A stretch of 64,000 nucleotides of DNA from Alphaproteobacteria bacterium (GCA_964291415.2 OZ219918.1:160001-224000); one strand, 5' to 3'; shown: positions 925-45,392, counted from the first letter of the stretch. The notes: generated by a model from the letters alone, not told the origin. Made by a program: numbers and translations.

Positions 925-1385
925 GTGTGGATATGTAGCAGAAAGCGTGCCTCTGCGCAGACGATGCCTCCCGCGTGACGTCTCCGCGTTCCCGCCGGAC
1001 TGGTCCACGTCGACGTGTGCGGGCTGGAAGATGACCTGCAGCAGTCATCGTTCCGCGAGGTGATCGATGAACCGAGTGACCCGCTCCTGCCGTTCCGCTG
1101 TCGGGGAGGTCTGTCAACGGATCATGGACGCGGGGCATGGGCACGGTACGACCGTTGCCGACGTGTGATGTCGCCTGCCAGCCGTGCGAGGACGTCGCTT
1201 TCCGGTCGGCCGGGACGTGTCTCGACACCATTCCGGAAATCTGTGACGGGTATCGTCCGCAGCCTTTGAATTGCGCCTGATCGCAAGCCGAACGTTTCCA
1301 CGACGGGCAGCACATGCTTCTGGCGACACCCCGCGAGCCCGTGCATAGTGACGTTCTCGACCGGAACCGGCACACGGAGGCGCAG

Positions 1386-2378
1386 ATGGCGGACTACAGC
1401 AGCTTGAAGGCGAGATTGCGCGACAGGGAGGTCATCATTCTCGATGGGGCGGTCGGCACCCAGCTCCAGGCGACGGGCGTGCCCATGGACCCCTATTGCT
1501 GGGCGGCAATCGGCAACCACACCCACCCCTCCACGGTGCAGAAGATGCACGAGGACTACATTCGCGCCGGCGCCGACGTGATCACCACGAACACCTATTC
1601 CGCGGCCCGCCACAACTACGAATCGGCGGGTCTCGGCGACCTCGTGATCGAACTGAACATCCGCGCCGTGCAGTTGGCGCAACAGGCGCGGGAACGTGTC
1701 GCCGACCGGCCGGTGTACATCGCCGGCTCGGTTTCGAACTTCGGCGCCTGGAGCGAGTCCGAGTACCAGTGGTTCAGAAAGTCAGCTCCTTCCTCCGGGG
1801 GATCGGGACTGCGGTCACGCAGCCTCATCACGGAGGTGCAGGCACGACGCAATGTGGCCGAGCAGGTGGCCATTCTCGTCGATGCCGGGGTAGACCTTCT
1901 GATCGCGGAAGCGACGGGCAACGAGATCCAGCGCGAGTGGGTTCTGGAAGCGGTCACGGATGCCGGCATACCCTACTGGGCCGGCTTCAAGTGTCACGTC
2001 AACGAGGGAGAGGCGGAGCCCCGCTCCGGCTACATGTCCGATAGCCTGCTTTCCGAGGAGCTGGACGCGCGACTTCCCCTTGATGCCGACGTCCTGTGCA
2101 TCTTCCATTCGACAATCGAGGACACGGACCAGGCCATACCGGTGGTACGCTCGAAGTGGAAAGGCACGCTCGGTGCCTATCCCGAGGCGGGGCGCAAGGA
2201 CTACGTACAGGCATTCGCGGATCGCAACAGCGAGAACCCGCACACGATCGACGAGTGGGTGGCGACCGCCAGGCGATGGACCGACAACGGGGTGCAGGTG
2301 ATCGGTGGCTGTTGCGGCATGGGACTCGATCACATCCGTGCCCTCGATGGGCAACTGCCCCGACGACTGGCTGCCTGA
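1386..2378 (+). CDS. Homocysteine S-methyltransferase family protein
   Basis: Motifs ILDGAVGTQL, HEDYIRAGADVITTNTY and the C-terminal IGGCCG Zn site. GGAGG RBS before the ATG at 1386. Confidence 0.9.
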   Translation: MADYSSLKARLRDREVIILDGAVGTQLQATGVPMDPYCWAAIGNHTHPSTVQKMHEDYIRAGADVITTNTYSAARHNYESAGLGDLVIELNIRAVQLAQQARERVADRPVYIAGSVSNFGAWSESEYQWFRKSAPSSGGSGLRSRSLITEVQARRNVAEQVAILVDAGVDLLIAEATGNEIQREWVLEAVTDAGIPYWAGFKCHVNEGEAEPRSGYMSDSLLSEELDARLPLDADVLCIFHSTIEDTDQAIPVVRSKWKGTLGAYPEAGRKDYVQAFADRNSENPHTIDEWVATARRWTDNGVQVIGGCCGMGLDHIRALDGQLPRRLAA

Positions 2379-2708: not shown

Positions 2709-2885
2709 TCAGGGCGAGGTGCCCCGTCCCTTCATGAACCGGCTGATGAGAAAGGCGGTCCAGGCGATCCACACCACGAGAGCACCCCAGAGATCGACGT
2801 GTGGCTCGATGAATCTCAGCCACAGGAGGACGATCAGAACCAGCCCTGCGATGCTGTAGAACACCATGTCGCCGAACTCCAGCAT
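2709..2885 (-). CDS. Small (58 aa) two-TM membrane protein at the end of the carbohydrate ABC operon
   Basis: MLEFGDMVFYSIAGLVLIVLLWLRFIEPHVDLWGALVVWIAWTAFLISRF. Its ATG overlaps the permease stop (TGATG), suggesting translational coupling. Confidence 0.7.
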   Translation of the reverse strand: MLEFGDMVFYSIAGLVLIVLLWLRFIEPHVDLWGALVVWIAWTAFLISRFMKGRGTSP

Positions 2886-3724
2886 CACTTCACCGCGCCG
2901 AAGGTCAGCCCGCGCGTGAGGTGGCGCTGGATGAACCAGATCATGATGAGCACCGGGATCGACACCACCACCGACGCGGCCGCCAGTTGCCCCCAGTAGG
3001 TGCCGTGCGGTGTGACAAGACCGGGAAACGCTGCAGGCAGGGTCTGCGCACCGGTACCGCCGATCATGAAGGCGAAGAGAAACTCGTTCCATGCGAAAAG
3101 GAAGGAGATCATGGCGGTCACGGCAATTCCCGGGCGCGCCAGTGGCAGAATGATGCGCGTGAAGACCTGCCATTCTCCGGCTCCCTCGGTCAGCGCCGCC
3201 TCGTCGAGTTCGCGTGGTATGTCGTTGAAGAAGTTGCGCATCAGGTAGACGACGAGGGCTAGATTGAACGTGGTCTGGGCGACGGTGACGGCGGTCAGTG
3301 TTCCGAGCAGTCCGATCGACTGGAAGAACATGTAGAGGGGCAGCACGAGTGCGATGCCCGGTGCCATGCGCGTGGTCAGCACGTAGAAGTAGACGTGCTT
3401 TTCGCCATAGACCCGGAACCGCGAGAAGGCATAGGCCGCCGGGAGTCCGAGAACCAGGCACAGCAACGTGCTCGCGCTCGCCGTCACCAGGGAGTTGATG
3501 AGATTGGTCGTGAACGGACCGATGACAAATGCCTCGTGAAAGTTGCTCAGGGTGGGTGAGAACAGGATCTTCGGCACCGGCGACATGACATCGGTACGAT
3601 GCTTGAACGCCGTCACCATGAGCCACAGGAAGGGAGCCAGTGCGGCCGCCGTCACCACCCAAATGACGGCAAGTTCCAGCCGGTCGAGAAGGCGTACTCC
3701 TTTCTTGCGGGTCAGTACGCTCAT
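2885..3724 (-). CDS. Carbohydrate ABC transporter permease (MalG-like)
   Basis: Multiple TM helices, EAA loop (IPRELDEAALTEGA) and FAWNEFLFA. Confidence 0.93.
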   Translation of the reverse strand: MSVLTRKKGVRLLDRLELAVIWVVTAAALAPFLWLMVTAFKHRTDVMSPVPKILFSPTLSNFHEAFVIGPFTTNLINSLVTASASTLLCLVLGLPAAYAFSRFRVYGEKHVYFYVLTTRMAPGIALVLPLYMFFQSIGLLGTLTAVTVAQTTFNLALVVYLMRNFFNDIPRELDEAALTEGAGEWQVFTRIILPLARPGIAVTAMISFLFAWNEFLFAFMIGGTGAQTLPAAFPGLVTPHGTYWGQLAAASVVVSIPVLIMIWFIQRHLTRGLTFGAVK

Positions 3725-4602
3725 GCCTTGCCGCCCGACATGCGGTTGATCAGCTTCATGACCGTGAACGTCATGACGAAGCTGATGAAGAACAGCAGTG
3801 CCACCACGGCCGAGCCATAGCCGAGATTCCAGAACGCGAAATTCACCTTGTAGGCGAAGATGGTGAGGAGCTCCGTGGCCGCACCCGGCCCGCCACCGGT
3901 CATGATGAACACCTGATCGAAGACCTTGAAGGCATCCGTGAGACGCAGCAGGAGAACCACGCCGATGATCGGTTGCAGCATCGGCAGGGTGATCCGCCGG
4001 AACATGTGCCAGCGCGAGGCGCCGTCGACCACCGCGGCCTCATACGGTTCGCGCGGCATGCCGATGATGGCGGCCAGGAAGATCATGGTGACGAAGGGAG
4101 TCCACTGCCAGACATCGACCGCAACGATGGTCAGGAAGGCGTTGAACGGTGTTCCCAGCAACCCCTCGGGCGCGATACCCATTTCCCTCAGCATGATGCC
4201 GAGAAGGCCGAAGTCCGGATTGAGATTGAGACGGGCGACGAGACCGACCACCACGGGCGCCAGGACCATGGGAATCAGCAACAGCGGCATGACGATGCGC
4301 TTCAGCACCATGTGGTAGGAGATCAGCACCGCGAGTGCGAGGCCGGCGACGAATTCCACGGGCAGCGCGATCAGCATGTAGAGCAGCGTCACGCTGACAC
4401 CGTGGAAGAGATCGTCGTCGAAGACCGCCTTGCGGTAGTTGTCGAGACCGATGAACTGACCGTTCTTTCCGGGTTGGGTGTAGCTGAGATGGTGGACGGA
4501 CTGGTCGAGCATGACGAGAAACGGCCACAGTTCGATGATGAGAAGAAAGGCCATCATCGGCACGAGCCACTGCCAGCCACCCCATGATGTCTTGCGTGTC
4601 AT
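3721..4602 (-). CDS. Carbohydrate ABC transporter permease (MalF-like)
   Basis: Motifs FIGLDNY, DVWQWTPF, EAAVVDGA and MTGGGPG. Confidence 0.93.
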   Translation of the reverse strand: MTRKTSWGGWQWLVPMMAFLLIIELWPFLVMLDQSVHHLSYTQPGKNGQFIGLDNYRKAVFDDDLFHGVSVTLLYMLIALPVEFVAGLALAVLISYHMVLKRIVMPLLLIPMVLAPVVVGLVARLNLNPDFGLLGIMLREMGIAPEGLLGTPFNAFLTIVAVDVWQWTPFVTMIFLAAIIGMPREPYEAAVVDGASRWHMFRRITLPMLQPIIGVVLLLRLTDAFKVFDQVFIMTGGGPGAATELLTIFAYKVNFAFWNLGYGSAVVALLFFISFVMTFTVMKLINRMSGGKA

Positions 4603-5708
4603 GCGCGAATTCCCTCGATGGCCCGGCCGGACGACCGGTCGAAGAGCTTCAATTCCTCGAGGTTGACGTCGAAGGAAAGCGTCTCGCCTTCTCGCACTGT
4701 CCGGGGACGCACCATCTTGGCGATGGCCTCGCTGGGGCCGAAGTTCACGAAGAGCAGAGTTTCGCTGCCCAGAGGCTCAACGATGTTGACGACGCTTTCG
4801 AAGACCGCGCCCTCTCGTGGCGGGATACCGTGGCCTTGGGGGGAGATGTCGTCTGCCCGCAGACCGATCACGACTTCGTGGCCCGTTTCCACATGCGCCG
4901 CCAGGTGCCCGGGAACCGGCAACTGCCAGTCTGAATCCACCCGGAGGATCCTGCCGTCGTCGGTGTCGGCGACGACGCCGTCGAACATGTTCATGGGCGG
5001 TGATCCGATGAACCTGGCAACGAAGGTGTTGGCCGGATAGTGGAAGATGTCGTCCGGGGCGCCGATCTGCTCGACCTTGCCGGCACGCATGATGACGACG
5101 CGGTCGGCCAGCGTCATGGCCTCGACCTGATCGTGGGTGACGTAGACCACCGTGGTCTCCACCTTCCTGTGCAGGCGCTTGATCTCGGTGCGCATCTGGG
5201 TGCGCAACTGGGCGTCGAGGTTGGAGAGCGGCTCGTCGAACAGGAACACGTCCGGATGACGAACGATGGCCCGTCCCATGGCAACACGCTGACGCTCGCC
5301 GCCGGAAAGTTGGGCCGGCTGACGGTCGAGAAGTTCGTCAAGACCGAGAATGTCGGCGGCTTCCGCCACCTTGAGATCGATCTCCCGGCGCGGCACGCGC
5401 GCGAGTGTCAGACCGAATGCCAGGTTCTCCCGCACGGACATGTGGGGATAGAGAGCGTAGTTCTGGAATACCATGGCCACGTTGCGCATGCGCGGCGGTT
5501 CGTCGTTCACCACCCTGTCGCCTATGTGGATGCTGCCGCTCGAGATTTCCTCCAGTCCGGCAATCATGCGCAGGGTGGTCGACTTGCCGCACCCCGAAGG
5601 TCCGACGAGAACGACAAACTCGTTGTGATCGATCTCGAGATCGATCTCGCGGACGGCGACCACGTCACCGTAGACCTTCGAAACGTTCTCAAGCAGCACC
5701 TTCGCCAT
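4599..5708 (-). CDS. Carbohydrate ABC transporter ATP-binding subunit (MalK/UgpC-like)
   Basis: Walker A GPSGCGKST, signature LSGGERQR, Walker B FLFDEPLSNLD and a C-terminal TOBE region. Confidence 0.95.
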   Translation of the reverse strand: MAKVLLENVSKVYGDVVAVREIDLEIDHNEFVVLVGPSGCGKSTTLRMIAGLEEISSGSIHIGDRVVNDEPPRMRNVAMVFQNYALYPHMSVRENLAFGLTLARVPRREIDLKVAEAADILGLDELLDRQPAQLSGGERQRVAMGRAIVRHPDVFLFDEPLSNLDAQLRTQMRTEIKRLHRKVETTVVYVTHDQVEAMTLADRVVIMRAGKVEQIGAPDDIFHYPANTFVARFIGSPPMNMFDGVVADTDDGRILRVDSDWQLPVPGHLAAHVETGHEVVIGLRADDISPQGHGIPPREGAVFESVVNIVEPLGSETLLFVNFGPSEAIAKMVRPRTVREGETLSFDVNLEELKLFDRSSGRAIEGIRA

Positions 5709-5729: not shown

Positions 5730-6410
5730 TCAGCCACCGGCCCCCCTGCATGCATCGAGGACGTCACGGAGTTGCGATGTCAGCGCCCCCTTGCGTGGCG
5801 AGAATGCGCCCTCGAGTGCTGCCGTGCCAATGGTGAATGCATCGCCTCCGGCCTCGGCCACTGCCAGGATACGCTCCGAAGAGTCGATGCTGCCGGCGAC
5901 CACGACCTCGCCCGGAGTGCCCGCGCGGGCGGCCCGCACCAGGTCGAGGGGGTCGCACTCGGTAGCGCGATAGGCGAGGAGATCGACACCGGCACATCCC
6001 ATGTCGGCGAAGCGTCGGCAGTCCTCCTCGATCATTCTGGCAGTTCCGCCAAGTCTCGTGGGATGTCCTTCCGGACGGCCGGGGAACGGCAGGTAAGCGA
6101 TGCCGCTGCCGTCAAGTATCTCCAGAGTGTCTTCGACATCGGTGCCGCCGAGCAGGCGGTCCACACCGAGCGCCCGCGCTGTTCTCGCCGATTCGAGCGA
6201 GGCCTCACGTGAGGTGCTGACCACCTCCATGTAGCTGATCGCGCCGGATTCCCTGATGGACCGGTTGAGTGTTTCCAGAGTGGTCTTGTCGACCCCGACA
6301 TCCTTGAATCCCACGTGACCAAGACCGAGGTCGCGGATACCGTCGAAGACATCGAGGCAATCGACGATGGTCTGGTCGTGCCGGGTGAGCATGAAGATGA
6401 AATCGATCAT
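5730..6410 (-). CDS. Uncharacterised TIM-barrel protein with a probable phosphate-binding C-terminus
   Basis: MIDFIFMLTRHD...GFKDVG...YMEVVS...GVDLLAYR...VVAGSIDS...FTIGTA. Alternating beta/alpha pattern ending in motifs like the ribulose-phosphate-binding barrel. Start set at MIDFIF. Confidence 0.7.
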   Translation of the reverse strand: MIDFIFMLTRHDQTIVDCLDVFDGIRDLGLGHVGFKDVGVDKTTLETLNRSIRESGAISYMEVVSTSREASLESARTARALGVDRLLGGTDVEDTLEILDGSGIAYLPFPGRPEGHPTRLGGTARMIEEDCRRFADMGCAGVDLLAYRATECDPLDLVRAARAGTPGEVVVAGSIDSSERILAVAEAGGDAFTIGTAALEGAFSPRKGALTSQLRDVLDACRGAGG

Positions 6411-6548
6411 GACGGTGTCGGTCCTACTCCGGACCGGCAACTTGCCAGACACATCATCGATATGGCAACCGCCACGGCCGCTGTTCTATTGGTGAAAATG
6501 GCCAATTCCGCTATGGTCCGTCCGATTGCGATGACCGAAGAAGAGGTG

Positions 6549-8816
6549 ATGATGCAGGGGACGTCCGGCAACCGGTGGAAGCGCTACGATGTGTGGGACG
6601 ACAGGCCGCTGAGGTACGACCGCTTCACGCCGGACAGTCCCGAGGACGGCTTCTGTGCCACCAACAGCCCCACCGATCCGAAGCCGTCCCTCGTGGTGAG
6701 GGACGGCCGTGTCGTCGAGATGGATGGCGTGGCGGAAGGAGCGTTCGACATGATCGATACCTTCATCGCCCGCCACCATATCGACCCGGAAGTCGCCGGC
6801 GAGGCGATGGCGATCGACAGCGGGGATTTCGCGAGACGTCTTGTCGATGTCAACGTGGCAAGGGACGAACTGGTGCGGCTGGCCCGCGGGATGACGCCGG
6901 CCAAGCTGTGCGATGTCCTCGACAGCATGAACACCCTGGAACTTTCCTTTGCCCAGGCCAAGCTGCGGACCCGCAGGATGCCCGGCAACCAGGCCCACGT
7001 TACCAACGCCAAGGACGACCCGGTTCAGCTCGCGGCGGACGCCGCCACCGCGGCTGCCATGGGGTTCGATGAGATCGAGACCACCATGCGCGTGGCGCGC
7101 AATTCGTGGTCCAACGCCCTTGCCTGCCTCATCGGTGCGGCGGTCGGAAAGCCGGGTACGCTGTTCCAGTGTGCCTGCGAGGAAGCCGAGGAGCTCAAGC
7201 TGGGCATGGCCGGCCTGACATCCTATGCCGAGACGGTCTCCGTCTATGGGACTGAGGGATCGTTCGTCGACGGCGACGACACGCCTTGGTCGAAGGCCTT
7301 CCTGATTGCCGCCTATACATCGCGCGGCATCAAGGCGCGGTGTACTTCCGGCGGCGGCGCGGAACTGCTCATGGGATTTCACGACACGCGCTCGCTGCTT
7401 TATCTCGAGGCCCGCTGCCTGTGTGTGCAGCGGGCAATCGGTGTCCAGGGAACCCAGAACGGTGGCATCGATGGTGCTCCGGTCACCGGGTCGATGACAG
7501 GTGGCATGCGCGAGATCCTGGCGGAGAACGTGCTCGCCGCACTGCTCGATCTCGAGTGCGCGTCGGGCAACGACACACGGATCAGTGAATCGGAAATCCG
7601 GGTCGGCGCCAAGATCATGCCCCATCTCATGTCGGGAACGGACTTCCTGTGTTCCGGGTTCGGGTCCATCCCGGCCTATGACAACTCCTTTGCGGCCTCC
7701 CTGTTCAATGCCGAGGAGATCGAGGATTTCCTTGCCGTACAGCGTGACTTCGAACTCGACGGCGGCATCCATCACGTCCCCGAGGGTCATGTCATGGCCC
7801 TGCGCCGGCGTGCCGTCGATGCTCTCGACGCCGTTTTTCGCGACCTTGGTCTCGGTGATGTTGGTGAGGCGCAGAAGACCAGTGTGGTCCAGGCGAGTGG
7901 TTCACGTGACACTGACACCTTCCGGCTGAGCGAGATTGGTGTCATCTCGGAGACGATCGCCCGAAAGGGCATCACGCTTCTCGACATCATCGCCGCCCTG
8001 GGACGCACCGGTTTTGTTGATGTGGCCGAGAATCTTCTGCTCTTGCTGCGCTACCGGGTGAGCGGCGACTACCTGCAGACGGCGGCGGTTATTCGTGACG
8101 GACGCGTGGTCAGTGCCGTCACCCACCCCAACGACTACAGCGGCCCCGGAACCGGGCACCGGCTGACCGCCGAGCGCCGCGACGAGATCGCCGGCATCCG
8201 CAGTCTTCTCACGAAACGGGAGATCTTCGAGTCGGCGGAACGCCACGAGGCGAGAGAGAGGCGTCGGTATCACCTGCAAGCGATCGGGCCCGCCGCTGGC
8301 GGCACGTCCCGGGACGAGGTGGTCATTGCCGTCAGTCCGGCCTTCGGCCGCAAGCTGCATCAAACAACCTCGGGCCTGTACCTGTCCGACGTGATGGAGG
8401 CGCTGCTCACCGGTGTTCAGGAAGGCGGTGGCAGGGCGCGGGTCGTGCGGGCGTGGCACACGGCCGACACATCGTTTCTCGGTCTTACCGCGGCACGCCT
8501 TTCCGCTTCGGGGATCGGGATCGGAATCCAGGCCAAGGGGACCGCGGTCATCCACACTGCTGACGACTATCCTCATATGAACCTGGAGCTTTTCTCCCAG
8601 GCACCGATCACCGGACTCGGGCACTACCGGCGTATGGGCCACAACGCGGCCTGCTATGCTCGCGGCGAACGTCCGGAACCGGTCAGCATCCCCTACAAGG
8701 GGGAGGCCCTTGGTGCCCGCTTTCATGTGCAGACATCGCTCATCTATGCGCTGGAAACGGCCATGGTGAAGGCGGACGCAGAACCGGAGGAGCTGAGGGT
8801 GACGTTCCATGAATGA
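6549..8816 (+). CDS. pduCD: Adenosylcobalamin-dependent diol/glycerol dehydratase, large (alpha) and medium (beta) subunits fused
   Basis: Alpha motifs QAHVTN, GFDEIETT, YAETVSVYGT, DGDDTPWSK, LYLEARC and NDYSGPGTG run in frame into beta motifs DEVVIAVSPAFG, GIGIGIQAKGT and NLELFSQAP. AAGAGG RBS before ATG 6549/6552. Confidence 0.92.
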   Translation: MMQGTSGNRWKRYDVWDDRPLRYDRFTPDSPEDGFCATNSPTDPKPSLVVRDGRVVEMDGVAEGAFDMIDTFIARHHIDPEVAGEAMAIDSGDFARRLVDVNVARDELVRLARGMTPAKLCDVLDSMNTLELSFAQAKLRTRRMPGNQAHVTNAKDDPVQLAADAATAAAMGFDEIETTMRVARNSWSNALACLIGAAVGKPGTLFQCACEEAEELKLGMAGLTSYAETVSVYGTEGSFVDGDDTPWSKAFLIAAYTSRGIKARCTSGGGAELLMGFHDTRSLLYLEARCLCVQRAIGVQGTQNGGIDGAPVTGSMTGGMREILAENVLAALLDLECASGNDTRISESEIRVGAKIMPHLMSGTDFLCSGFGSIPAYDNSFAASLFNAEEIEDFLAVQRDFELDGGIHHVPEGHVMALRRRAVDALDAVFRDLGLGDVGEAQKTSVVQASGSRDTDTFRLSEIGVISETIARKGITLLDIIAALGRTGFVDVAENLLLLLRYRVSGDYLQTAAVIRDGRVVSAVTHPNDYSGPGTGHRLTAERRDEIAGIRSLLTKREIFESAERHEARERRRYHLQAIGPAAGGTSRDEVVIAVSPAFGRKLHQTTSGLYLSDVMEALLTGVQEGGGRARVVRAWHTADTSFLGLTAARLSASGIGIGIQAKGTAVIHTADDYPHMNLELFSQAPITGLGHYRRMGHNAACYARGERPEPVSIPYKGEALGARFHVQTSLIYALETAMVKADAEPEELRVTFHE

Positions 8817-9219
8817 GGGAGGCCGGTCAGACGAAAAACCGGCAGGGGTGCTTGCGACAACGGGTGGTCGGCCTCTTGAAGAACTGACACTCGCCAACGT
8901 GCTCGCCGGTACGGTGGATGAGAGTGATGTGGGCATCCGCCCCGCCGTGCTTCGCCACCAGGGCACCGTCGCCCGCGGTGCCGGCCGCGACCGGCTGGCG
9001 GACAATTTCGAGCGAGGCGCCGAGCTTGTCGGTGTCCCCGACGAAGAGATCTTCGCCACCTACGAGAAGTTGCGCCCGGGGCGGGCGCGGAGCCGGGCGG
9101 AACTGATCGAACTCGCCCGTCATTACCGGCAGACCTACGGAGCACATCGCATCGCCGAACTGATCGAGAGCGCGGCCGAGGTGTACGAACGCCGCCGTCT
9201 CTTCCAGAAGAGGTTCTGA
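8809..9219 (+). CDS. pduE: Diol dehydratase small (gamma) subunit
   Basis: Motifs GRPLEELTLANVL, LADNFERGAEL..VPDEEIFATYEKLRPGR, YGA and AAEVYERRRL. Overlaps the upstream stop. Confidence 0.9.
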   Translation: MNEGGRSDEKPAGVLATTGGRPLEELTLANVLAGTVDESDVGIRPAVLRHQGTVARGAGRDRLADNFERGAELVGVPDEEIFATYEKLRPGRARSRAELIELARHYRQTYGAHRIAELIESAAEVYERRRLFQKRF

Positions 9220-9221: not shown

Positions 9222-9998
9222 ATGATTCTCGACGACAGGATCGCCGTCGTCACGGCGGCAGGTTCCGGTATAGGCCGGGCCGGCGCCGAGGCCATGGCCG
9301 CCGAGGGAGCCTTCGTCATCGCCACGGATCTCGTCGCCGAGCGGGCCGCCGGAACTGCTGAGCGCATTCAAAAAGCCGGTGGCGCGGCGACCTCTCTCGC
9401 CGTCGATGCGGGTGATGACGAGGCCCTCGCATTGCTCATGAACCAGGTGGCGGCCGACCATGGCCGCATCGATATCCTTCACAGCCACGCCGGTATCCAG
9501 ATCGAGGGAGGTGTCGGCGACCTTATTGCGGCCGACCTCGACCGCTCCTACCGGTACAATGTGCATGCGCACTACGTCGCGGTGACATGCGCCCTGCCGC
9601 ACATGCAGGATGCTGGTGGCTCGATCCTCTTGACCTCATCCAACGCCGGTGTGTTCCCGGACTACGGCATGACCGGTTACATCACCACCAAGGCTGCCGT
9701 GGTCATGATGGCGGAACAGATGGCGCTTGACCTCGCGCCGCACGGAATTCGCGTGAATGCGCTGTGTCCGGGCTGGATCGACACGCCGTTCAACGACGCA
9801 TACCAGCGCCAGCTCGGCGGCAGGGAGGCGCTCGAGGAGGTTGTTGCCACGCGCGTGCCGCTGGGCCGCTTCGGAACGGTTGGGGAGATTGCCGACGCCA
9901 TTGTCTTTCTCGTTTCCGACCGTTCTTCCTACATCACCGGACACGCCCTCATCGTCGATGGCGGCGAGCGTCTCGTCGGTCCCGGACCTCGCAGCTGA
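9222..9998 (+). CDS. Short-chain dehydrogenase/reductase
   Basis: Motifs VTAAGSGIG, catalytic YITTK, RVNALCPG and ITGHALIVDGG. Confidence 0.92.
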   Translation: MILDDRIAVVTAAGSGIGRAGAEAMAAEGAFVIATDLVAERAAGTAERIQKAGGAATSLAVDAGDDEALALLMNQVAADHGRIDILHSHAGIQIEGGVGDLIAADLDRSYRYNVHAHYVAVTCALPHMQDAGGSILLTSSNAGVFPDYGMTGYITTKAAVVMMAEQMALDLAPHGIRVNALCPGWIDTPFNDAYQRQLGGREALEEVVATRVPLGRFGTVGEIADAIVFLVSDRSSYITGHALIVDGGERLVGPGPRS

Positions 9999-10099: not shown

Positions 10100-11191
10100 T
10101 CATGGTCCTGGATCAAGGCGTCGGAATGCGGTTGAGAGAGCATCCGGGTTGGCGACATGGAGGGGTGGCGCGCCTGTCAGCAGGCGCGCCAGACCATCGG
10201 CCAGCATGGCCGCCGTGCGCGCCGGAACATCACTCGAAATGCCGGCAACGTGGGGTGTGAGGAGAAGCCGGTCCGGGGTCACATCGAACAGTGGGCTGTC
10301 CGGCGGCAGCGGCTCATCGGGATAGACATCGATCAGGGCGCCAGCGATCCGGTCATCGCCCAGTGCTGCCAGGAGTGCATCGTAGTCAAGAGCCGTTGCC
10401 CGTGCGGTATTGACAAGCCAGGGGCGCTTCGCCATGGCGGCGAACTCGCTCTTGCCCAGCAAAGGCCGGCTTCCACCGGCAAGGCGCGCGTGAATGGAGA
10501 CGATGGTGCTTTCGGCAAGAAGGCGGTCCAGTGGTACTGCTTCGGCTCCGGCTGCCGCCAGGCTGGCCGGGTCGACGAAGGGGTCCGTCGCCATCACCCG
10601 GGCGCCGAAGGCCCGGGCGAGACGGGCCACCAGACAGCCGATCCGGCCGGCGCCGACGAGGCCCAGCGTCTGCCGGGACAATTCCGGGCCACTCGGTTTC
10701 TCGAAGGTGTCCTCCAGCGGTGTTGTCCATGACCCCTGGCGCACCCAGTCCAGCGCCAGGGGGATCCTGCGCATGAGGTTGATCATGCCGGCAATGACGA
10801 ATTCGGCGACAGCTTCCTCGTTGCGACCAGGAGCATGGAGCACCGGGATCCCGCGTTCGCTGGCGGCGGCAAGGTTGATGTTGATCGGACCGCCCCTGCC
10901 ACAACAGATGGCAACAAGCCGGGGCGCTTGGTCGATCAGGTCGGCCGTCACCGGCGCGAAAGTGGTGACAAGAAACTGGCAGTCGGCGACATGACGCGCG
11001 ATCTCGTCGACATCGCCGAACGCCTCGGACACCTCGCCGGAGCGGTATGCCGTGACGTCGTTGCTCTCGATGTCGATGCAGCGAAACGAAACGGATATCC
11101 CGTCAGCTGCGAGTCGGTTGCCGAGGACACGCTCGAAAAGCGCTGCCGGGGTGAAATCGTCGCCCAGAACGAGACACGTCCATTCCGTCAT
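10100..11191 (-). CDS. D-2-hydroxyacid dehydrogenase family protein
   Basis: Motifs GRNEEAVAE, LVGAGRIG, VNTAR, DVYPDEP and LTPHVAG. Start MTEWT overlaps the kinase stop. Confidence 0.9.
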   Translation of the reverse strand: MTEWTCLVLGDDFTPAALFERVLGNRLAADGISVSFRCIDIESNDVTAYRSGEVSEAFGDVDEIARHVADCQFLVTTFAPVTADLIDQAPRLVAICCGRGGPININLAAASERGIPVLHAPGRNEEAVAEFVIAGMINLMRRIPLALDWVRQGSWTTPLEDTFEKPSGPELSRQTLGLVGAGRIGCLVARLARAFGARVMATDPFVDPASLAAAGAEAVPLDRLLAESTIVSIHARLAGGSRPLLGKSEFAAMAKRPWLVNTARATALDYDALLAALGDDRIAGALIDVYPDEPLPPDSPLFDVTPDRLLLTPHVAGISSDVPARTAAMLADGLARLLTGAPPLHVANPDALSTAFRRLDPGP

Positions 11192-12663
11192 TTTCTGACC
11201 TCGAGACAGAGTTCCACGGCCCGGCACCACGCCTGGTAACGATCCTCCCGGCACGACCGCATGGCTTCCTGCGGTTCGAAGTGGGTGTCATCCTCAGGTG
11301 ATTCCGTCGCGTCCCCGGCCCACAGGCCGGCACCGACTCCTGCCATGCGGGCGACGCCGTAGGCCGTGAGTTCAGGGCGTGCGGACCGGATGACGGGGCG
11401 CGCGAGAATGTCGGCCTGCAGCTGGAGGAAGTGGTCACTTCGTGCCAGACCGCCATCCACGCGAACGGTGCCGTCGGTCTTCATGTCGTCGAGGACGCGC
11501 TTTACCTGGAAGCAGATGGCCTCAAGAGCAGCCAGGCAGACGTCGCTGTCATCGCTCGAGGCATCGAGGCCCATCACGGCGGCGCGGGCCCGTGGATCCC
11601 ACCAGGGTGACGCCAGTCCCTGGAAGGCAGGGACGAGCATGACGCCCGACGTCGTGTCGGCGCCTTGAGCCCGCTCGATGACCTCGCCGGCGTCGCCGCA
11701 CAACCTGAGGCGGTTGACGAGCCAGTCGAGGATGGCGCCGGCATACATCACGAATCCCTCAAGCGCATAGGTTGGCCGGTCGAGATGCCAGGCAATGGTC
11801 TCGAGACCTCCTGCCACAGCCGAAGACCGGCGCTCGTGGCCACCGTTCATCCACACGAATGCTCCGGTGCCGTACGTGCTCTTCACGGCGCCTTCATTCA
11901 GACAGCCATGACCGAACAGGGAAGCCTGCTGGTCACCCATGGCGGCTGTCAGAGGGACCTCCGCGCCGAAGTGCCTCGTCGCGCATGTTCCCATCATGCA
12001 TCCAGAAGGGACCACCCGCGGCATGGCGCCGGGGTCGATGTCGAAGAGCGCGAGGAGATCGCTGTCCCATGCCAGTGAGCCGATGTTGAAGAGCATGGTG
12101 CGGGAGGCATTGCTGTAGTCGGTGGCATGAAGGGCGCCATCGCTCAGGCGCCACAGGAGCCAGCTGTCAACCGTGCCCCACAACACCTCTCCACGTGCCA
12201 GCGCCCTTGCGATCTCCGGCTCGTGTCGCATGACCCAGCGCAACTTGGTTGCGGTGAAGGTCGGATCGAGATCAAGCCCGGTCCTGTCACGAATGAACCG
12301 GCGGTTGTCCGGTGTGTCGATATCCGCCGTGACACCGGTGCTGCGGCGACATTGCCAGACGATCACAGGATGAACGGGACGGCCGGTGTCCCGTTCCCAC
12401 AGCACCAGGGATTCGGTGTGATTGTCGATGCCCAACCCGGCGATGGCCGAGGCCGGAACAGTGGTGATGTCGAGAAGTTCCCGGGCGCAGTCAAGAACGT
12501 TCGCCACCATGGCTTCGGCATCCTGCTCCACCAGACCGGGCGCCGGATGGGTTGCCGGCAATGCCCTTGTGGTCTGCGCAAGTATGCTCCCCTTGTCATC
12601 GAGCAGGACAGCCTTGGTTCCGGAGGTACCCTGATCGATACCGATCACGTGATCCCGGGTCAT
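11188..12663 (-). CDS. FGGY-family carbohydrate kinase (glycerol kinase-like)
   Basis: Motifs IGIDQGTSGTK, IVWQCRR, TDYSNASRTML, GDQQASLFG, KSTYGTG and RVDGG. Confidence 0.92.
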   Translation of the reverse strand: MTRDHVIGIDQGTSGTKAVLLDDKGSILAQTTRALPATHPAPGLVEQDAEAMVANVLDCARELLDITTVPASAIAGLGIDNHTESLVLWERDTGRPVHPVIVWQCRRSTGVTADIDTPDNRRFIRDRTGLDLDPTFTATKLRWVMRHEPEIARALARGEVLWGTVDSWLLWRLSDGALHATDYSNASRTMLFNIGSLAWDSDLLALFDIDPGAMPRVVPSGCMMGTCATRHFGAEVPLTAAMGDQQASLFGHGCLNEGAVKSTYGTGAFVWMNGGHERRSSAVAGGLETIAWHLDRPTYALEGFVMYAGAILDWLVNRLRLCGDAGEVIERAQGADTTSGVMLVPAFQGLASPWWDPRARAAVMGLDASSDDSDVCLAALEAICFQVKRVLDDMKTDGTVRVDGGLARSDHFLQLQADILARPVIRSARPELTAYGVARMAGVGAGLWAGDATESPEDDTHFEPQEAMRSCREDRYQAWCRAVELCLEVRK

Positions 12664-12672
12664 TGATACTGA

Positions 12673-12718
12673 CAGGCCGGCTCCCGAACCCGTTGCGAAG
12701 GGTCCGGGAGCCGGCCTG
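12673..12718. terminator. Strong GC-rich stem-loop between the SBP and kinase genes (mRNA stabiliser or attenuator)
   Basis: CAGGCCGGCTCCCG...CGGGAGCCGGCCTG forms a perfect 14-bp inverted repeat immediately after the SBP stop. There is no clear U-tract. Confidence 0.65.
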
Positions 12719-12726
12719 ATATCACT

Positions 12727-14247
12727 TTACTGGTACTCGGCGAGTGCCGGAATCTCGGCGTAGATCTCCTCGACCGCGGCATCAAGGCCCTCCTTGGGCT
12801 CCATCTGCCCTGCCAGGACAGCACTCAGATGCTTCATGAGGATCTCTTCGAGAGTGGCGTACTCGGGGAAGTTCTCCAGCTTGAAAATCACCGGTTGTGT
12901 TTCGCCCGTCACCGGGTCGACGGCATCGACGTAACTCGCCGGAACTCCATCGGCCGCGCCGCTGCTGCGCAGGGCCGGCTGCCCGTCATACTCGGGAACT
13001 CGGCCGCTCAGCATGTAGTGGTTGGTGGCGGCATAATCGAGTGCCCTCACGAACTCCTCGTGATAGGCCGATTCGGTGAGCGAGATACTGCCCGTCGACA
13101 TCAGCTTCGCCTGCACGTCTGGCCGCTGAGTCCACTGCAGGAAGAGAGCGGCCGCTTCCGGATTCTTCGAGCTTGTCGGTATGAACATGCCCCACTGGTG
13201 CAGGTTGACGATCTTGCGGGCACCGATGGGTGTGCCGCTGAACGCGATTCTGCCGGCGACAGTCGACTGCTCTTCGTCGTGCGCCATGGCATATGACGCA
13301 TCGGCCCACAACAGGGTCTGGGCAGCGATGCCGCTCTGGATGGCGGCGAGCTGCTCGTCCCAAGTGTAGGTCAGCGATCCGGGCGGGCATGTCTCAAGCA
13401 GCAGGTCCCTGTAGAAGGTCAGGGCCTCGACGCCCTTCTCGTTGTTGATCACAACGGGTCCGTACTCGGGGCCTGAGGCACTGTCGATGACGAGACCATC
13501 GTAAGCATAGAGAATGTTGTAGAAGTTATAGAGCATCGAGACATGGCGCTTGCCCGAAAGGGTGAGGCCGTAGAAGGGCTGCTCCAGGGTCTCGCCGGCC
13601 AGCATGTCACCCGATTCACGGGTGAAGAACATTGCCGTGTCGCGAAGCTCGTCGAGCGTGACGGGCGGTGAGGGAAGGTCATAACCGTACTCTTCCTTGA
13701 ATGCAGCCTGCTCATCGGGGTGCTCAAACACGTCATAGCGCCAGTTGAGATAGATCGTGTGCGCCGAGAAAGGCACACCGTAGAGCGTACCTTCGTGGGC
13801 CAGTGACGCGTTGAGCCAGTCCTGGCTCAGCACCTGGTCGACCACGGCGAATTCCGGATCGGCAAGGGCCGGATCGTTGAGATAGGTTTCCAGAGGCAGA
13901 GCCCAGCCGTTGACCACGAGAGTCGGCACCCGCATCAGAGGGTTGAGCACCGCGTCATAGAAACCGGTGCCGCCAATGAAATCGGCCGACGTCTTCTGGA
14001 TGACCTGGTCGAAGGCATGCTGTTCGACCTCGACCATGATGCCTGTCTCCGCTTCGAAGGCCGCCTTCTGCTGGTCCAGGGACTCGAGAGGGGGAAGGGC
14101 TTCCCCGATGACGCGAATGGTCACCCCTTCGTAGGGCTTTGCGGCCTCGCTGAGAGACCACTCTTCTGCCGACGCACCGGATAGCACCACACTGCCGCCG
14201 GCCACCATCGCGGCAAGCAGCAGACTACGGGAACGGGTTCTGATCAT
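12727..14247 (-). CDS. Carbohydrate ABC transporter solute-binding protein
   Basis: Signal peptide, then AAKPYEGVTI, FEAETGI, YGVPF, WRYDVF and a C-terminal EPKEGLD, typical of sugar-binding proteins. Confidence 0.9.
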   Translation of the reverse strand: MIRTRSRSLLLAAMVAGGSVVLSGASAEEWSLSEAAKPYEGVTIRVIGEALPPLESLDQQKAAFEAETGIMVEVEQHAFDQVIQKTSADFIGGTGFYDAVLNPLMRVPTLVVNGWALPLETYLNDPALADPEFAVVDQVLSQDWLNASLAHEGTLYGVPFSAHTIYLNWRYDVFEHPDEQAAFKEEYGYDLPSPPVTLDELRDTAMFFTRESGDMLAGETLEQPFYGLTLSGKRHVSMLYNFYNILYAYDGLVIDSASGPEYGPVVINNEKGVEALTFYRDLLLETCPPGSLTYTWDEQLAAIQSGIAAQTLLWADASYAMAHDEEQSTVAGRIAFSGTPIGARKIVNLHQWGMFIPTSSKNPEAAALFLQWTQRPDVQAKLMSTGSISLTESAYHEEFVRALDYAATNHYMLSGRVPEYDGQPALRSSGAADGVPASYVDAVDPVTGETQPVIFKLENFPEYATLEEILMKHLSAVLAGQMEPKEGLDAAVEEIYAEIPALAEYQ

Positions 14248-21485: not shown

Positions 21486-22604
21486 TCAGCCGCCGTGGCG
21501 TTCCAGAGCTTCGAGCACCTGTGAATGGAAGGTATGCAGCGGAACCTCGGAGAACCACGAGTCCTCAGGGTCGCAAACATAGCGTCCCTGATCGTAGCCC
21601 AGGCTCGACAGGCCTCGCTGGACGCTTTCGACGATGGCGATATCCTGCTGGTTGAAGTGATCCATGAACAGGCTCTTCACGGCAAGAAGCTTGGGATCGA
21701 CGGGCCCCTCGGGGGCATAGATGTCCACGCGTTCCGCGCATCGGCCGACACCGTTCGGGAGCATTCGCAGCACCAGCAGGTTTCTGGAACCCGGCAAGCT
21801 CAACATGTTCAGCGTTGGCCAGGCCATCCACGCGACGTAGGGGGAGCCGGCCTCGATCTCGAGACCCTCGAACCCCGTCCGGCTGCGATAGAGGAAATAG
21901 GAGAACCGTTCCTCCTGGACGAAATCGTCAAGGCCTTCGTCCAGCACCCGGGCAAGTTCCGGGTGCGCGACAGGAATGTGATAGGCCTCCGCGAAGTTGT
22001 CGACGACGACTTTCCAGTTCGCTTCGATATCGTAGTGGAGACGTTCCACCGCGACGAAGTTCTCGATGTCCGGCAGATGCCGCGTGATTGTCCCGCCGAA
22101 CCGGCCCATCGTCGTCTCGAACGGTTCGCATCCGGAATCGAGATTGACGAACAGCAGGCCCGCGCTCTCGGCGACGTTGATTCTCCGCAGGGAGAATTGC
22201 CCACGATCGAAGTTCGCGAGCGACTCGGTGTGCGGTGCGTTCCGCAGCGTGCCGTCAAGGCCGTAGAACCACGCGTGATAGGGACAGGTGATGCCGACCT
22301 TGAGTGAACCGCGTCCCTTGAGCAGTTCATGGCCCCGGTGCTGACAGACGTTGAAGTATGCCCGGACCTGACCGCCTTGATCGCGCAGCACGACGATCGG
22401 CTGTCCTGCGATGCTGTCGGTAAAGTAGTCCCCGGGGCCGGGAATGTCGCTGACATGTCCGACATAGCACCAGCTCTTGCAGTGGACGGCGTGAAGCTCG
22501 CGCCGGTAGATGTCGTTATCGGTGTAGTAGCGCGACGGCAGGGTCGGCGATTCCAGGTGGTTTGTCCGGAAGGACCCTCGTTCGCCGACGGGCTGCTCGG
22601 TCAT
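21486..22604 (-). CDS. Rieske non-heme iron oxygenase alpha subunit (CntA/choline-betaine monooxygenase-like)
   Basis: Rieske CQH...CPYH, mononuclear Fe site NWKVVVDNFAEAYHIPVAHP and C-terminal DIAIVESVQRGL. Confidence 0.9.
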   Translation of the reverse strand: MTEQPVGERGSFRTNHLESPTLPSRYYTDNDIYRRELHAVHCKSWCYVGHVSDIPGPGDYFTDSIAGQPIVVLRDQGGQVRAYFNVCQHRGHELLKGRGSLKVGITCPYHAWFYGLDGTLRNAPHTESLANFDRGQFSLRRINVAESAGLLFVNLDSGCEPFETTMGRFGGTITRHLPDIENFVAVERLHYDIEANWKVVVDNFAEAYHIPVAHPELARVLDEGLDDFVQEERFSYFLYRSRTGFEGLEIEAGSPYVAWMAWPTLNMLSLPGSRNLLVLRMLPNGVGRCAERVDIYAPEGPVDPKLLAVKSLFMDHFNQQDIAIVESVQRGLSSLGYDQGRYVCDPEDSWFSEVPLHTFHSQVLEALERHGG

Positions 22605-22609
22605 GCTGG

Positions 22610-24649: not shown

Positions 24650-24713
24650 GTCGTCGGTTCCCGTCCAGGTTCAACGGGGCGGCAGCCTTGGGTGACCACC
24701 ACCCCGGGGCACG

Positions 24714-25814
24714 CTACAGTCCCGCCTTGACTTCCTCGAAAAGGAACTGGAGGTCGGACTCGCCCTGAATCGGCTGCTGGTAGATCCCCGCCGCGAGAAT
24801 CTCCTGGGGATTCTTCGACAGTCCGAGTGCCGTAAGCACATCTTCGCTCACGAGGTCGAAGGCCGACTGCGTGGCGGCACCGTAACCGAACACCTCCATC
24901 TCGTATGCGCGCGAGCGCGGATCGAGAAAGGCGTTGATCAACGCATGGGCCTTGTCCGGGTATGGACTGTCCGTCGCAATCGACAGGCCACAAACCCAGG
25001 TCATGGCGCCTTCCTTCGGATTCATGAAGGCGACCGGAAGACCCTGGCTCTTGAGGCGGACGACCGACTCGTTCCAGGTCGTGGCGGCGATCAGTTCGCC
25101 GCTGGCCAGACCCTGCTCCATGCCCGTGTAGTCATTCGAGTAGTAGCGCAGATTGGCGGTCAAATCCTCGAGATAGGGACGGATCGTGTCGAGTGCGTCC
25201 TGCGTGGAATAGTCAAATGGGTTGTCGAGACCCGCGACGATTCCGGCGATGACAACGCCATCAACGAGACTGTCGAATGCCGCCACCTGTCCCCTGTATT
25301 TGGGGTCCCAGAGAATCATCCAGGATTCGTCGTCGACATATTCCGGCGCGAGATCGGTTCGATAGAGAATTGAGGTGAGACCCCAGTCCACCGGCACCCA
25401 GTAGTGGTCGCCGTCGATGGTGCTTCCCGGAACGTCCTTCAATGCCGGGATGATGTCGCCCCAGTTGGCGAGGCGAGAGACATCGACAGGCTGGAGCAGG
25501 CCCGAATCGACCCACTTCTTGATGCTGTAGTTGCAGGGGAACACCACGTCGGGGGCAAAGCCCGCGCGCATCTTGGCGATGCCCTCTTCCTCGTCGCCCC
25601 AGAACGTGAAGTTCGGAGCACCGCCTTCCTGTTCGACATAGGCCTGCCAGAGATTCTCGTCATCGTAGCCGGCCCATCCGAAGTAGGTGGCCTGGCCGTC
25701 ATCGGCCCGCACGCCCTGGCTGGTCGAGGCAAGGTGGAACGTTGGAACGACGCCCGCTGCCGTCAACCCGGCCAACACGTTGCGGCGGTTCAGCGCAACA
25801 AGGGGATGTTTCAC
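24714..25814 (-). CDS. PotD/PotF-like amine solute-binding protein (Tat signal)
   Basis: Tat motif NRRNVL, then WAGY, VPVDWG and PKEGAMTW. GTG start with an AAGGAGG RBS. Confidence 0.85.
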   Translation of the reverse strand: MKHPLVALNRRNVLAGLTAAGVVPTFHLASTSQGVRADDGQATYFGWAGYDDENLWQAYVEQEGGAPNFTFWGDEEEGIAKMRAGFAPDVVFPCNYSIKKWVDSGLLQPVDVSRLANWGDIIPALKDVPGSTIDGDHYWVPVDWGLTSILYRTDLAPEYVDDESWMILWDPKYRGQVAAFDSLVDGVVIAGIVAGLDNPFDYSTQDALDTIRPYLEDLTANLRYYSNDYTGMEQGLASGELIAATTWNESVVRLKSQGLPVAFMNPKEGAMTWVCGLSIATDSPYPDKAHALINAFLDPRSRAYEMEVFGYGAATQSAFDLVSEDVLTALGLSKNPQEILAAGIYQQPIQGESDLQFLFEEVKAGL

Positions 25815-25949
25815 GGTAGCCTCCTTTGATCGTCTTCGCATGTCGGTGTGGGTTCCGGACCCACGATTGGCGACCAGTATCGGTTTGGCAGACGGCACGG
25901 TTCAATTGTCCCACTTGGGACACACGGCAATCAGCACTATGATTGTTCC

Positions 25950-26972: not shown

Positions 26973-27125
26973 CGGGACACCGCAATTCTCCGGTGCGGGG
27001 CCTTGTTCCGAGCCGATCGAAGGACAACCGGCAGTCTGCGGCAAGGACGACGTCAAGCGTCGCGAATGCGCGATAGTCCGCGTGCCGTGGAGAGTGCGTT
27101 CCGGGAAGCTCCGGTGACCCGGAGT

Positions 27126-30126: not shown

Positions 30127-30402
30127 GCCCGTTCCTCCACGTCTTGAGATGTGCAAGAGACTGGAACAGGTTGCCCGGAGCCTGCAAGTCCCGGACAACG
30201 GTCTGGACGGAATTCGGCCGCCGGCAGCCCGCCACTGAGGTCTTGCGCAAGAGATCGAACGAAGGCGGGACTTGACCCGACCTCCCGATTGCGTGAATCG
30301 TGGGGCCTACCAGGGCCACGGCGAAATGGACACGGCGGCCGACGCAATCCCGGGTCATGGGCCAAGATCACCGGCGGTTCGACAGGACGGGGAGGTGCAG
30401 CA

Positions 30403-45122: not shown

Positions 45123-45244
45123 TCCTTGTCTGTCGCCAGCAAGTAGAACTGTCCGGTTTTCGTAGCACATCAATTGGCCGCTTCTGTCGCCGCTGATCCT
45201 TGTCTTGCGGATCGTCGGTTCCTGGTCTAGGGTGGTTCCAGTCA

Positions 45245-45332
45245 CTCACGGGGAGCTCCTTGGGAGCTGAGAGATGCCGAGACGCATCGACCCGTTGAAC
45301 CTGATCCGGATCATGCCGGCGTAGGGATTGAG
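45245..45332 (+). promoter_or_regulatory. TPP riboswitch (THI element)
   Basis: GGGGAGC...GCTGAGA...ACCCGTTGAACCTGATCCGGATCATGCCGGCGTAGGGA matches the consensus and lies directly upstream of thiBPQ. Confidence 0.93.
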
Positions 45333-45392
45333 GCGACGGTCTTTTCCCACCAGAAAGACACCCTCCCCGGCACCGGCGCCGAAGGAGGAACC

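Follow-up and report, generated by a model that had tools for sequence, protein, structure and literature searches.

The 64,000-nucleotide stretch of DNA analysed here (Alphaproteobacteria bacterium, GCA_964291415.2 OZ219918.1:160001-224000; hereafter the window) carries at 6315..8816, on the + strand, an open reading frame (ORF) for a fused alpha-beta (large plus medium) subunit of the adenosylcobalamin (AdoCbl)-dependent diol/glycerol dehydratase family. Its catalytic residues are kept and the residues on the C3 side of the substrate are replaced, the replacements being themselves invariant, a pattern expected of a conserved mechanism with a changed specificity; judged from its sequence, the enzyme retains the mechanism of the family and has an altered specificity wall. 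We tentatively propose that the enzyme naturally acts on neither propane-1,2-diol nor glycerol, but on a hydrophilic vicinal diol that bears a polar and probably cationic (amino) group beyond C2. Diol and glycerol dehydratases, a textbook case of B12 radical enzymes, serve to make 3-hydroxypropanal, 1,3-propanediol and butanone, and are known for a narrow substrate range and for self-inactivation on glycerol.

Catalytic residues and substrate pocket

The protein was aligned with Escherichia coli PduC (554 aa, L084), the plasmid-borne DhaB1 of Klebsiella oxytoca (L083) and a haloarchaeal enzyme (L085). Window residue numbers minus 85 give the PduC numbers, a difference that is constant across the pocket stretch. 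The locus had been singled out by a model that read the sequence alone (the original prediction), and the Klebsiella numbering that it used holds because the offset to PduC is constant at +85. The relevant motifs, all on the + strand and located by translation, are as follows:

Residue 226, nucleotides 6990-6998, + strand: QAH (Q141, H143)
Residue 252, nucleotides 7068-7085, + strand: DEIETT (E170)
Residue 304, nucleotides 7224-7235, + strand: YAET (E221)
Residue 381, nucleotides 7455-7475, + strand: QNGGIDG (Q296 kept; S299G, S301D, C302G, then I303A, G304P)
Residue 419, nucleotides 7569-7583, + strand: NDTRI (D335 kept; Q336T, T337R, F338I)
Residue 446, nucleotides 7650-7658, + strand: CSG (S362 kept)
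Residue 456, nucleotides 7680-7691, + strand: DNSF (M373S; F374 kept)

The range of the original prediction, 7455-7700, spans QNGGIDG (raw bases from 7455: cag aac ggt ggc atc gat ggt) to DNSF, and QAH, DEIETT and YAET lie upstream in the same ORF. The ligand motifs that it named (QAH, DEIETT, YAET, the Q of QNG, the D of ND and the S of CSG) are all present, and all seven residues align with those of the references. Q141, H143, E170, E221, Q296, D335, S362 and F374 are identical in the window and the references, and the first seven are also identical in all 74 aligned relatives, which share 59-96% identity. Q141, E170, E221, Q296 and S362 are described as metal ligands, and H143 and D335 as catalytic residues (PMC7674605).

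Window residues D386, G387, T421, R422 and S458 occupy PduC positions 301, 302, 336, 337 and 373, at which E. coli PduC, K. oxytoca DhaB1 and the Halomarina enzyme have S, C, Q, T and M; in a printed alignment the corresponding columns of the solved K. pneumoniae enzyme show QNGAVSC / NDQTFS / YDNMF. The C3-side residues of characterised propanediol/glycerol dehydratases (S301, Q336, C302, T337 and M373) are therefore not kept in the window, where D, T, G, R and S stand instead. The original prediction had read S301D, C302G, Q336T, T337R and a change of DNMF to DNSF, and had proposed an alignment to PduC and DhaB; run here, the alignment bears out each of these changes in PduC numbering, and the characterised propanediol/glycerol dehydratases lack them. 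Its placing of S301 and Q336 beside substrate C3 likewise agrees with a published account, in which Ser301 faces the C3-OH of pro-S glycerol and S301A and Q336A alter the enzyme's handling of glycerol (PMC7674605).

The new residues are highly conserved. D301, G302 and A303 are invariant in the 74 relatives, of which 72 have S373 and 69 have R337; position 336 varies, with Ala in 57, Thr in 13, Cys in 2 and Ser and Val in 1 each. Additional clade-conserved changes lie near active-site strands, namely G/A174R (74/74), Y178N (73/74), P180W (71/74), T287Q (74/74), I303A (74/74), G304P (72/74) and A315E (74/74); the changes at these seven positions had been overlooked in the original prediction. 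Such conservation argues that the pocket substitutions are neither chance nor a sequencing quirk.

Window residues R259, N263 and W265 (positions 174, 178 and 180) sit right after E170. The strand that follows E170/T172 reads ETTMRVARNSW in the alphaproteobacterial clade, ETTVGIARYAP in canonical enzymes and ETTVPVNADAP in an actinobacterial QNGGIDG group. Being on the substrate side that faces the adenosyl radical, the rewritten 174-180 strand could bear on regiochemistry.

Gene architecture and predicted fold

Pfam Dehydratase_LU covers residues 87-632 of the fusion (710 bits, cutoff 25) and Dehydratase_MU residues 674-787 (85.7 bits, cutoff 27). Because the large- and medium-subunit domains lie on one chain, the gene is a natural alpha-beta fusion, a feature that had escaped the original prediction. 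The fusion passes the NCBIfam large-subunit model NF011979 (799 bits, cutoff 788); its medium subunit stays under the NCBIfam subfamily cutoff (183 versus 248). Two genes follow it closely:

8809..9219, + strand: gamma (small) subunit gene; Pfam Dehydratase_SU, 121 bits; 8-base overlap with the alpha-beta stop
9222..9998, + strand: short-chain dehydrogenase/reductase (SDR) oxidoreductase; starts 2 bases past the gamma gene

The gamma gene is under all NCBIfam small-subunit cutoffs (129 versus 196). The family set PF02286, PF02288 and PF02287 is complete, with large, medium and small subunits all encoded, and the locus is predicted to encode a working AdoCbl-dependent dehydratase made of a fused alpha-beta chain and a gamma chain.

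The true start of the fusion lies later than 6315, given that its relatives are 751-784 aa long. Up to 6452 the mismatches to L001, a 91%-identical locus, follow the third codon positions of a gene on the minus strand; beyond that point they follow those of the + frame. Since this pattern switches frame after 6452, the fusion probably starts between 6453 and 6531, with M50 (6462) and M73 (6531) as candidates.

An AlphaFold2 model of the fusion was built on 45 sequences and has a mean predicted local distance difference test (pLDDT) score of 78.9. Foldseek aligned it with TM-scores of 0.90 to the alpha chains of diol and glycerol dehydratases (1mmf_A, 1dio_A, 3auj_A) and of 0.92-0.94 to beta chains. 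The pLDDT is lowest, around 50-56, at model residues 341-400, which hold the NDTR, CSG and DNSF loops.

Phylogeny of the signature clade

Among at least 599 pattern matches of a genome scan, 594 relatives were confirmed, of which the best 80 were examined. All of these 80 are Alphaproteobacteria and carry the signature or a near variant of it, and none but L001 exceeds 67% identity. Fused forms make up the whole set of the 120 best database relatives; counting the query, QNGGIDG is found in 117 of 121 sequences and ND[A/T/S]R, at a fixed offset, in 119. A search of 1.84 billion cluster representatives revealed four signature groups in the family:

Group 1, canonical: QNG[S/A][V/I]SC + NDQ + YDNMF
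Group 2: QNGSISC + NDA[I/L]
Group 3, that of the window: QNGGIDG + ND[A/T]R + YDNSF
Group 4: QNGGIDG + ND[A/T/S/N]L + YDN[M/A]F

With a member of group 4 as query, 119 hits were retrieved; the anchor motif is readable in 116, every one of which has QNGGID[G/A/S], and nearly all hits carry both subunit domains. The taxonomy of this group follows the two hits that bear an organism name, Dactylosporangium and Microbispora.

An IQ-TREE phylogeny of the alpha part in 48 rows, with canonical enzymes as outgroup, unites all QNGGIDG enzymes in a single clade of 41 rows with a Shimodaira-Hasegawa-like approximate likelihood ratio test (SH-aLRT) support of 100. This clade splits into an actinobacterial branch (support 99) and an alphaproteobacterial one (100). 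In the alphaproteobacterial branch the NDT forms, that of the window among them, make up a basal grade, and the NDAR forms constitute a derived clade; most relatives read NDAR, not NDT. The idea that QNGGIDG/NDT marks a separate clade thus stands for its first half, since in this topology QNGGIDG defines a clade and NDT does not. NDT was rejected as a clade marker: FastTree on the full alpha-beta chain gave two clades, and IQ-TREE on the alpha part makes NDT a basal grade. One sequence, L080 (2105..4168), loses register after Q296 (QKGSDLI...) and has an open frame of only 696 aa; it is probably a frameshifted or broken copy in the contig of a metagenome-assembled genome.

The distribution of the signature bears on the view that the substitutions are a structural adjustment to the alpha-beta fusion, for instance through a D301-R337 salt bridge or loop repacking, and say nothing of the substrate. 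Every QNGGIDG enzyme seen is a fusion, and the changes co-vary as a block (301-304, and 337 with 373), as that view would have it. However, a second fused group keeps the canonical QNGSISC (P0123, 749 aa; P0125, 726 aa), so fusion does not require the pocket change, and the actinobacterial QNGGIDG group has D301 without R337 or S373, so D301 needs no such partner. Engineered fusions of the Klebsiella enzyme also retain a canonical pocket. We consider a purely structural origin improbable.

Gene neighbourhoods of related dehydratases

The ORFs neighbouring the dehydratase in relatives were clustered de novo and the clusters named with Pfam; counts were obtained with reference queries at an identity of at least 40%. 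The commonest gene order is alpha-beta, gamma, an isochorismatase-family hydrolase, an amino-acid-type permease or a PotD-like ATP-binding cassette (ABC) system, and an SDR. An APH-family phosphotransferase and a class-III aminotransferase adjoin this set, often with an AraC regulator and sometimes with aldehyde dehydrogenase (ALDH) and microcompartment shell genes. Among the full-flank loci of the NDAR subclade the counts are:

Kinase or class-III aminotransferase-fold gene: 26 of 34
6ci8-like SDR: 30 of 34
Isochorismatase-family hydrolase: 23 of 34
Shell genes: 9 of 34

An amino-acid/amine permease is found in 19 of all 64 loci of the subclade, and acylating ALDH and shell genes in 10-12 of the 64. 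In the NDT grade, a second SDR type is present in 11 of 19 loci and FGGY kinases are recurrent.

The NDAR-subclade kinase matches PDB entry 6ef6 (7e-84); for the SDR the match is 6ci8/6ci9 (1e-89), with generic FabG proteins far behind. The database names of these entries are 'aminoglycoside phosphotransferase' (6ef6) and '3-oxoacyl-ACP reductase' (6ci8/6ci9); we take them to be the (S)-1-amino-2-propanol kinase and dehydrogenase of the aminoacetone-utilisation microcompartment of Mycobacterium smegmatis. The aminotransferase of an Agrobacterium operon matches the phospho-lyase 5g4i (1e-105) and the human ethanolamine-phosphate phospho-lyase 6tor (2e-100), and true transaminases match it at 5e-50 or weaker. 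This phospho-lyase-like type was confirmed for the Agrobacterium/Shinella and Hyphomicrobium forms only; the commoner type, beside the 6ef6-like kinase, is more like putrescine aminotransferase, a transaminase. The ALDH of locus L057 passes an aminobutyraldehyde-dehydrogenase model (772, cutoff 615); its cluster is present in 10 of 81 sources by ORF clustering, and three loci have a protein at least 40% identical to it.

A compact arrangement is seen on two annotated plasmids of cultured strains, Agrobacterium cucumeris pO132a and a Shinella zoogloeoides plasmid, where a single tight operon with gaps of at most about 83 bases runs permease, binding protein, permease, alpha-beta, gamma, UgpC, SDR, phosphotransferase, class-III aminotransferase, followed by GntR. 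The window SDR is 57% identical to the SDR of the A. cucumeris operon, encoded between the ugpC and phosphotransferase genes, and only 29% identical to the 6ci8-like (aminopropanol-dehydrogenase-like) SDR of the NDAR subclade. The RMM2/Aaum-type set of aminopropanol-dehydrogenase-like SDR, kinase and class-III aminotransferase-fold gene, found in 26 of 34 full-flank NDAR loci and in the Agrobacterium/Shinella operons, is not present in the 64-kb window.

No reactivase gene was detected: tblastn with the K. oxytoca reactivase alpha subunit gave no match within about 10 kb in any of 82 related loci or in the whole window. In the canonical loci of K. oxytoca and Halomarina, the reactivase gene is directly downstream of the dehydratase.

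Two further arrangements were observed. In the Ancylobacter loci L022 and L040 the dehydratase genes have as neighbours a glycerol-kinase-like FGGY gene and an ABC system with a DUF2160 small membrane protein, an arrangement known from rhizobial glycerol uptake operons. P0081 (1269 aa), from a single 6.8-kb contig, has a xylulokinase-like FGGY domain in frame with an alpha-beta dehydratase that reads QNGAIDG / NDTR / YDNSF; it may be a true fusion or reflect a lost stop codon.

Surroundings of the dehydratase in the window

The dehydratase lies at the junction of three transcription units: a divergent transporter, the alpha-beta/gamma/SDR unit, and a convergent unit of binding protein, kinase and dehydrogenase. 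The genes of the flanking units are:

2885-3724, - strand: sugar-type permease, divergent operon 2885..5708
3721-4602, - strand: sugar-type permease, divergent operon 2885..5708
4599-5708, - strand: ABC ATPase of UgpC/MalK type; NF008653 UgpC subfamily, 479 bits versus a cutoff of 432
5730..6452, - strand: P0272, 240 aa, conserved, no Pfam family; heads the transporter operon, divergent from the dehydratase
10100-11254, - strand: D-2-hydroxyacid dehydrogenase, convergent operon 10100..14247
11188-12663, - strand: glycerol-kinase paralogue of the FGGY family, convergent operon 10100..14247
12727-14247, - strand: solute-binding protein, convergent operon; nearest solved relatives bind sugars or sorbitol

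P0272 is a real gene, as 38 of 54 mismatches to L001 within 5709-6314 fall on its third codon positions. It was found in the window and L001 only (83 sequences); its nearest Atlas clusters are labelled '4-hydroxythreonine-4-phosphate dehydrogenase family' (0.98), and it has a weak His_biosynth-like TIM-barrel match. The top PDB matches of the window FGGY protein are glycerol kinases (1e-111), yet it scores below the GlpK cutoffs. The window neighbours were also considered as conserved partners of the dehydratase and rejected, as tblastn over 80 loci found the 2-hydroxyacid dehydrogenase in 3, the FGGY protein in 6, the binding protein in 9 and P0272 in 1 (L001).

Within the 64 kb there is no adenosyltransferase, bacterial microcompartment shell, PduL/P/Q, DhaT or other pdu/dha accessory gene, and no cobalamin riboswitch lies upstream of the dehydratase; the sole Rfam match in the window is a distant thiamine pyrophosphate (TPP) riboswitch. 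This element (45239..45345, + strand, 77 bits versus a gathering score of 54) stands directly before a binding protein/permease/ATPase set at 45393..48698, which is presumably a thiamine-related transporter.

Elsewhere in the window, 21486..28244 and 34848..40227 hold genes of the methylated-amine-catabolism type: a Rieske oxygenase, an Oxidored_FMN plus Pyr_redox_2 dehydrogenase and a GCV_T protein, then a GATase_6 protein, a Glu_synthase/GXGXG protein, a Fer4_20/Pyr_redox_2 protein and an ammonium transporter (40906..42354). With a gene of the homocysteine S-methyltransferase family also present, at 1314..2378, the organism seems able to handle small amines and betaines. At 30151..33824 (+ strand) a 561-aa ORF without family precedes a 663-aa AAA_15/AAA_21 ATPase, a pair that could be a defence-type ATPase system, and a Fic-domain gene is found at 50794..52014.

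Proposed substrate and reaction

An amino-substituted diol is the best single guess for the substrate because the dehydratase of most relatives neighbours an amino-alcohol kinase/phospho-lyase route and amine importers, and it would explain the invariant Asp where Ser301 normally meets the C3 substituent. Such a diol would be of the 3-amino-1,2-propanediol or amino-polyol type. We infer the nature of the substrate, the order of the steps and the role of the SDR from the family assignment, ligands, altered residues, clade and neighbourhoods described above. The original prediction had pointed to a bulkier or charged substrate such as an amine, phosphate or sulfonate; the amine is favoured by the kinase and aminotransferase-fold neighbours of the relatives, but the 64-kb window has none of these.

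In the mechanism that we propose, the neighbouring ABC transporter would import the amino-diol, and the radical and metal machinery would work as in the textbook enzyme, with the metal holding the two vicinal hydroxyls. Hydrogen abstraction from C1, migration of the C2-OH and loss of water would give a carbonyl, while the C3-facing wall would be formed by Asp 301, Gly-Ala-Pro 302-304, Thr/Ala 336, Arg 337 and Ser 373. The co-transcribed SDR would convert the (amino)carbonyl product, an amino-ketone or amino-aldehyde, before phosphorylation and elimination. In related genomes, an amino-alcohol kinase and a phospho-lyase would then release an aldehyde, ammonia and phosphate, sometimes within a microcompartment. 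An activity like that of ethanolamine ammonia-lyase was considered and ruled out, as all metal ligands for two hydroxyls are kept.

A bolder extension, which we regard as rather doubtful, is that the QNGGIDG clade comprises the first diol-dehydratase-family enzymes acting on cationic amino-diols and doing so without a dedicated reactivase. They would convert a 3-amino-1,2-diol to aminoacetone, with reversed regiochemistry, or to 3-aminopropanal. In Alphaproteobacteria and Actinobacteria they would thus supply the entry enzyme that has so far been missing from the aminoacetone/amino-alcohol kinase-phospho-lyase pathway and from its microcompartments.

Several observations weigh against an amino-diol. 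The window is without an amino-alcohol kinase, phospho-lyase, amine permease, isochorismatase or shell gene, and in the NDT grade, to which it belongs, a kinase or lyase is found in only 4 of 12 full-flank loci and 7 of 19 overall. The sugar-type ABC transporter, glycerol-kinase paralogue and 2-hydroxyacid dehydrogenase of the window suggest instead a neutral polyol or glycerol derivative. We know of no amino-diol that is a common natural nutrient. D386 and R422 might be paired with each other instead of with the substrate, a possibility that the model leaves because its confidence is low over the pocket loops. By analogy with the engineered mutants, loss of Ser301 and Gln336 slowing suicide inactivation would suit an enzyme that has no reactivase, a reading that fits the altered pocket equally well. 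A shared product, propionaldehyde, offers another explanation for the co-location with the aminopropanol pathway, one that has been suggested for RMM2 loci (Axen et al., 2014; PMC4207490).

The last two points lead to an ordinary propane-1,2-diol (or glycerol) dehydratase, which would feed propionaldehyde to enzymes shared with the aminopropanol branch and whose pocket would exclude glycerol or slow inactivation, so allowing work without a reactivase. S301A and Q336A lower the rate of inactivation by glycerol (Table 1 of PMC7674605), and A336 is the natural residue in 57 of 74 relatives. The lack of a reactivase gene, unlike in K. oxytoca and Halomarina, fits such an enzyme, as do the acylating ALDH and shell genes of some NDAR loci and the glycerol-kinase-like FGGY gene and DUF2160 transporter of the two Ancylobacter loci. 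The aminopropanol pathway and propanediol dehydration both end in propionaldehyde, and a 'bifunctional' microcompartment has been raised for RMM2 (Axen et al., 2014; PMC4207490). Nevertheless, a hydrophobic methyl at C3 would not account for an invariant Asp accompanied by two Arg and a Glu in the active-site segments. Moreover, the co-transcribed amine- and sugar-type transporters would be needless for a small, freely diffusing diol, and PduL/PduW/PduQ or DhaT-type genes are missing from the window, the cluster representatives and the window-grade loci. We hold an ordinary propanediol dehydratase to be unlikely, though worth keeping in view.

For the window lineage, a neutral polyol (such as a C4 polyol) or a glycerol derivative carrying a phosphate or an ester (such as glycerol-3-phosphate or a glycerophosphodiester) also has to be weighed, with the FGGY kinase and the new arginines handling the phosphate or the extra hydroxyls. 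The window supplies the UgpC-type ATPase above its cutoff, sugar-type permeases and binding protein, the glycerol-kinase paralogue and the 2-hydroxyacid dehydrogenase, and the two new arginines (174 and 337) lie near active-site strands. FGGY kinases stand beside NDT-type dehydratases in the window, L001, L022, L040, L043, L064, L076 and L081, P0081 reads as an FGGY kinase-dehydratase fusion, and a HAD phosphatase follows the kinase in Shinella and L064. However, these FGGY genes are of more than one subfamily (glycerol-kinase-like and xylulokinase-like, 28% identical) and are usually in separate transcription units, and P0081, a single sequence on its short contig, may be an assembly or read-through artefact. 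The invariant Asp 301 speaks against an anionic C3 group and, on chemical reasoning only, the dehydration product of a 3-phospho-diol would be prone to eliminate phosphate and give acrolein. We judge such a substrate unlikely, and prefer the amino-diol as a working proposal.

Relation to known systems and significance

The closest characterised systems, PddABC/PduCDE (K. oxytoca, Salmonella, E. coli) and DhaB123 (K. pneumoniae), share with the window enzyme the three Pfam domains, the fold, 48-50% identity and residues Q141, H143, E170, E221, Q296, D335, S362 and F374. The window enzyme differs in its fused alpha-beta chain, in S301D, C302G, I303A, G304P, Q336T/A, T337R and M373S, and in 174R, 178N, 180W, 287Q and 315E, and its locus has no reactivase, adenosyltransferase, pdu shell or dha genes nearby. 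Ethanolamine ammonia-lyase EutBC is likewise an AdoCbl radical enzyme with a TIM-barrel large subunit (Foldseek TM-score 0.58) and acts on a vicinal amino alcohol; however, identity is only 11-12%, and EutBC has no metal-diol site, whereas the window protein keeps the two-hydroxyl metal ligands.

Both the natural fusion and the presence of diol-dehydratase homologues at amino-alcohol microcompartment loci are already in print. Natural fused 'glycerol dehydratases' of Mesorhizobium loti and M. smegmatis were described by Liu et al. (2010, as cited in PMC7674605), where they are given as candidate glycerol dehydratases; the part of that article dealing with them mentions no pocket signature or other substrate. 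They have the same alpha-beta fusion plus gamma, and M. loti CJ3sym (L026) falls in the clade of the window with the same signature. RMM2 loci of Mycobacterium and Rhodococcus carry diol-dehydratase homologues beside a short-chain dehydrogenase, phosphotransferase, class-III aminotransferase, amino-acid permease, ALDH and shell proteins (Axen et al., 2014; PMC4207490). The same gene set surrounds most of the alphaproteobacterial relatives, with the kinase matching 6ef6 and the SDR 6ci8/6ci9, but not the window locus. The alphaproteobacterial dehydratase is co-directional with the permease and SDR, whereas that of RMM2 is on the opposite strand and was judged probably unused (PMC4207490). In the literature searched (few subscription journals, supplements excluded) we found no characterised fused or QNGGIDG-type enzyme, no description of the pocket signature and no proposal of an amino-diol substrate.

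This large natural clade, in which the chemistry appears kept, the pocket is re-lined, two subunits are fused and a reactivase gene is absent nearby, would widen the reaction space of the family and would account for the unexplained dehydratase genes of RMM2-type microcompartment loci. It would also supply naturally fused scaffolds for engineering, possibly resistant to inactivation. Should the substrate be propanediol, the clade would represent a natural solution to the glycerol inactivation that engineers have attacked with S301A and Q336A.

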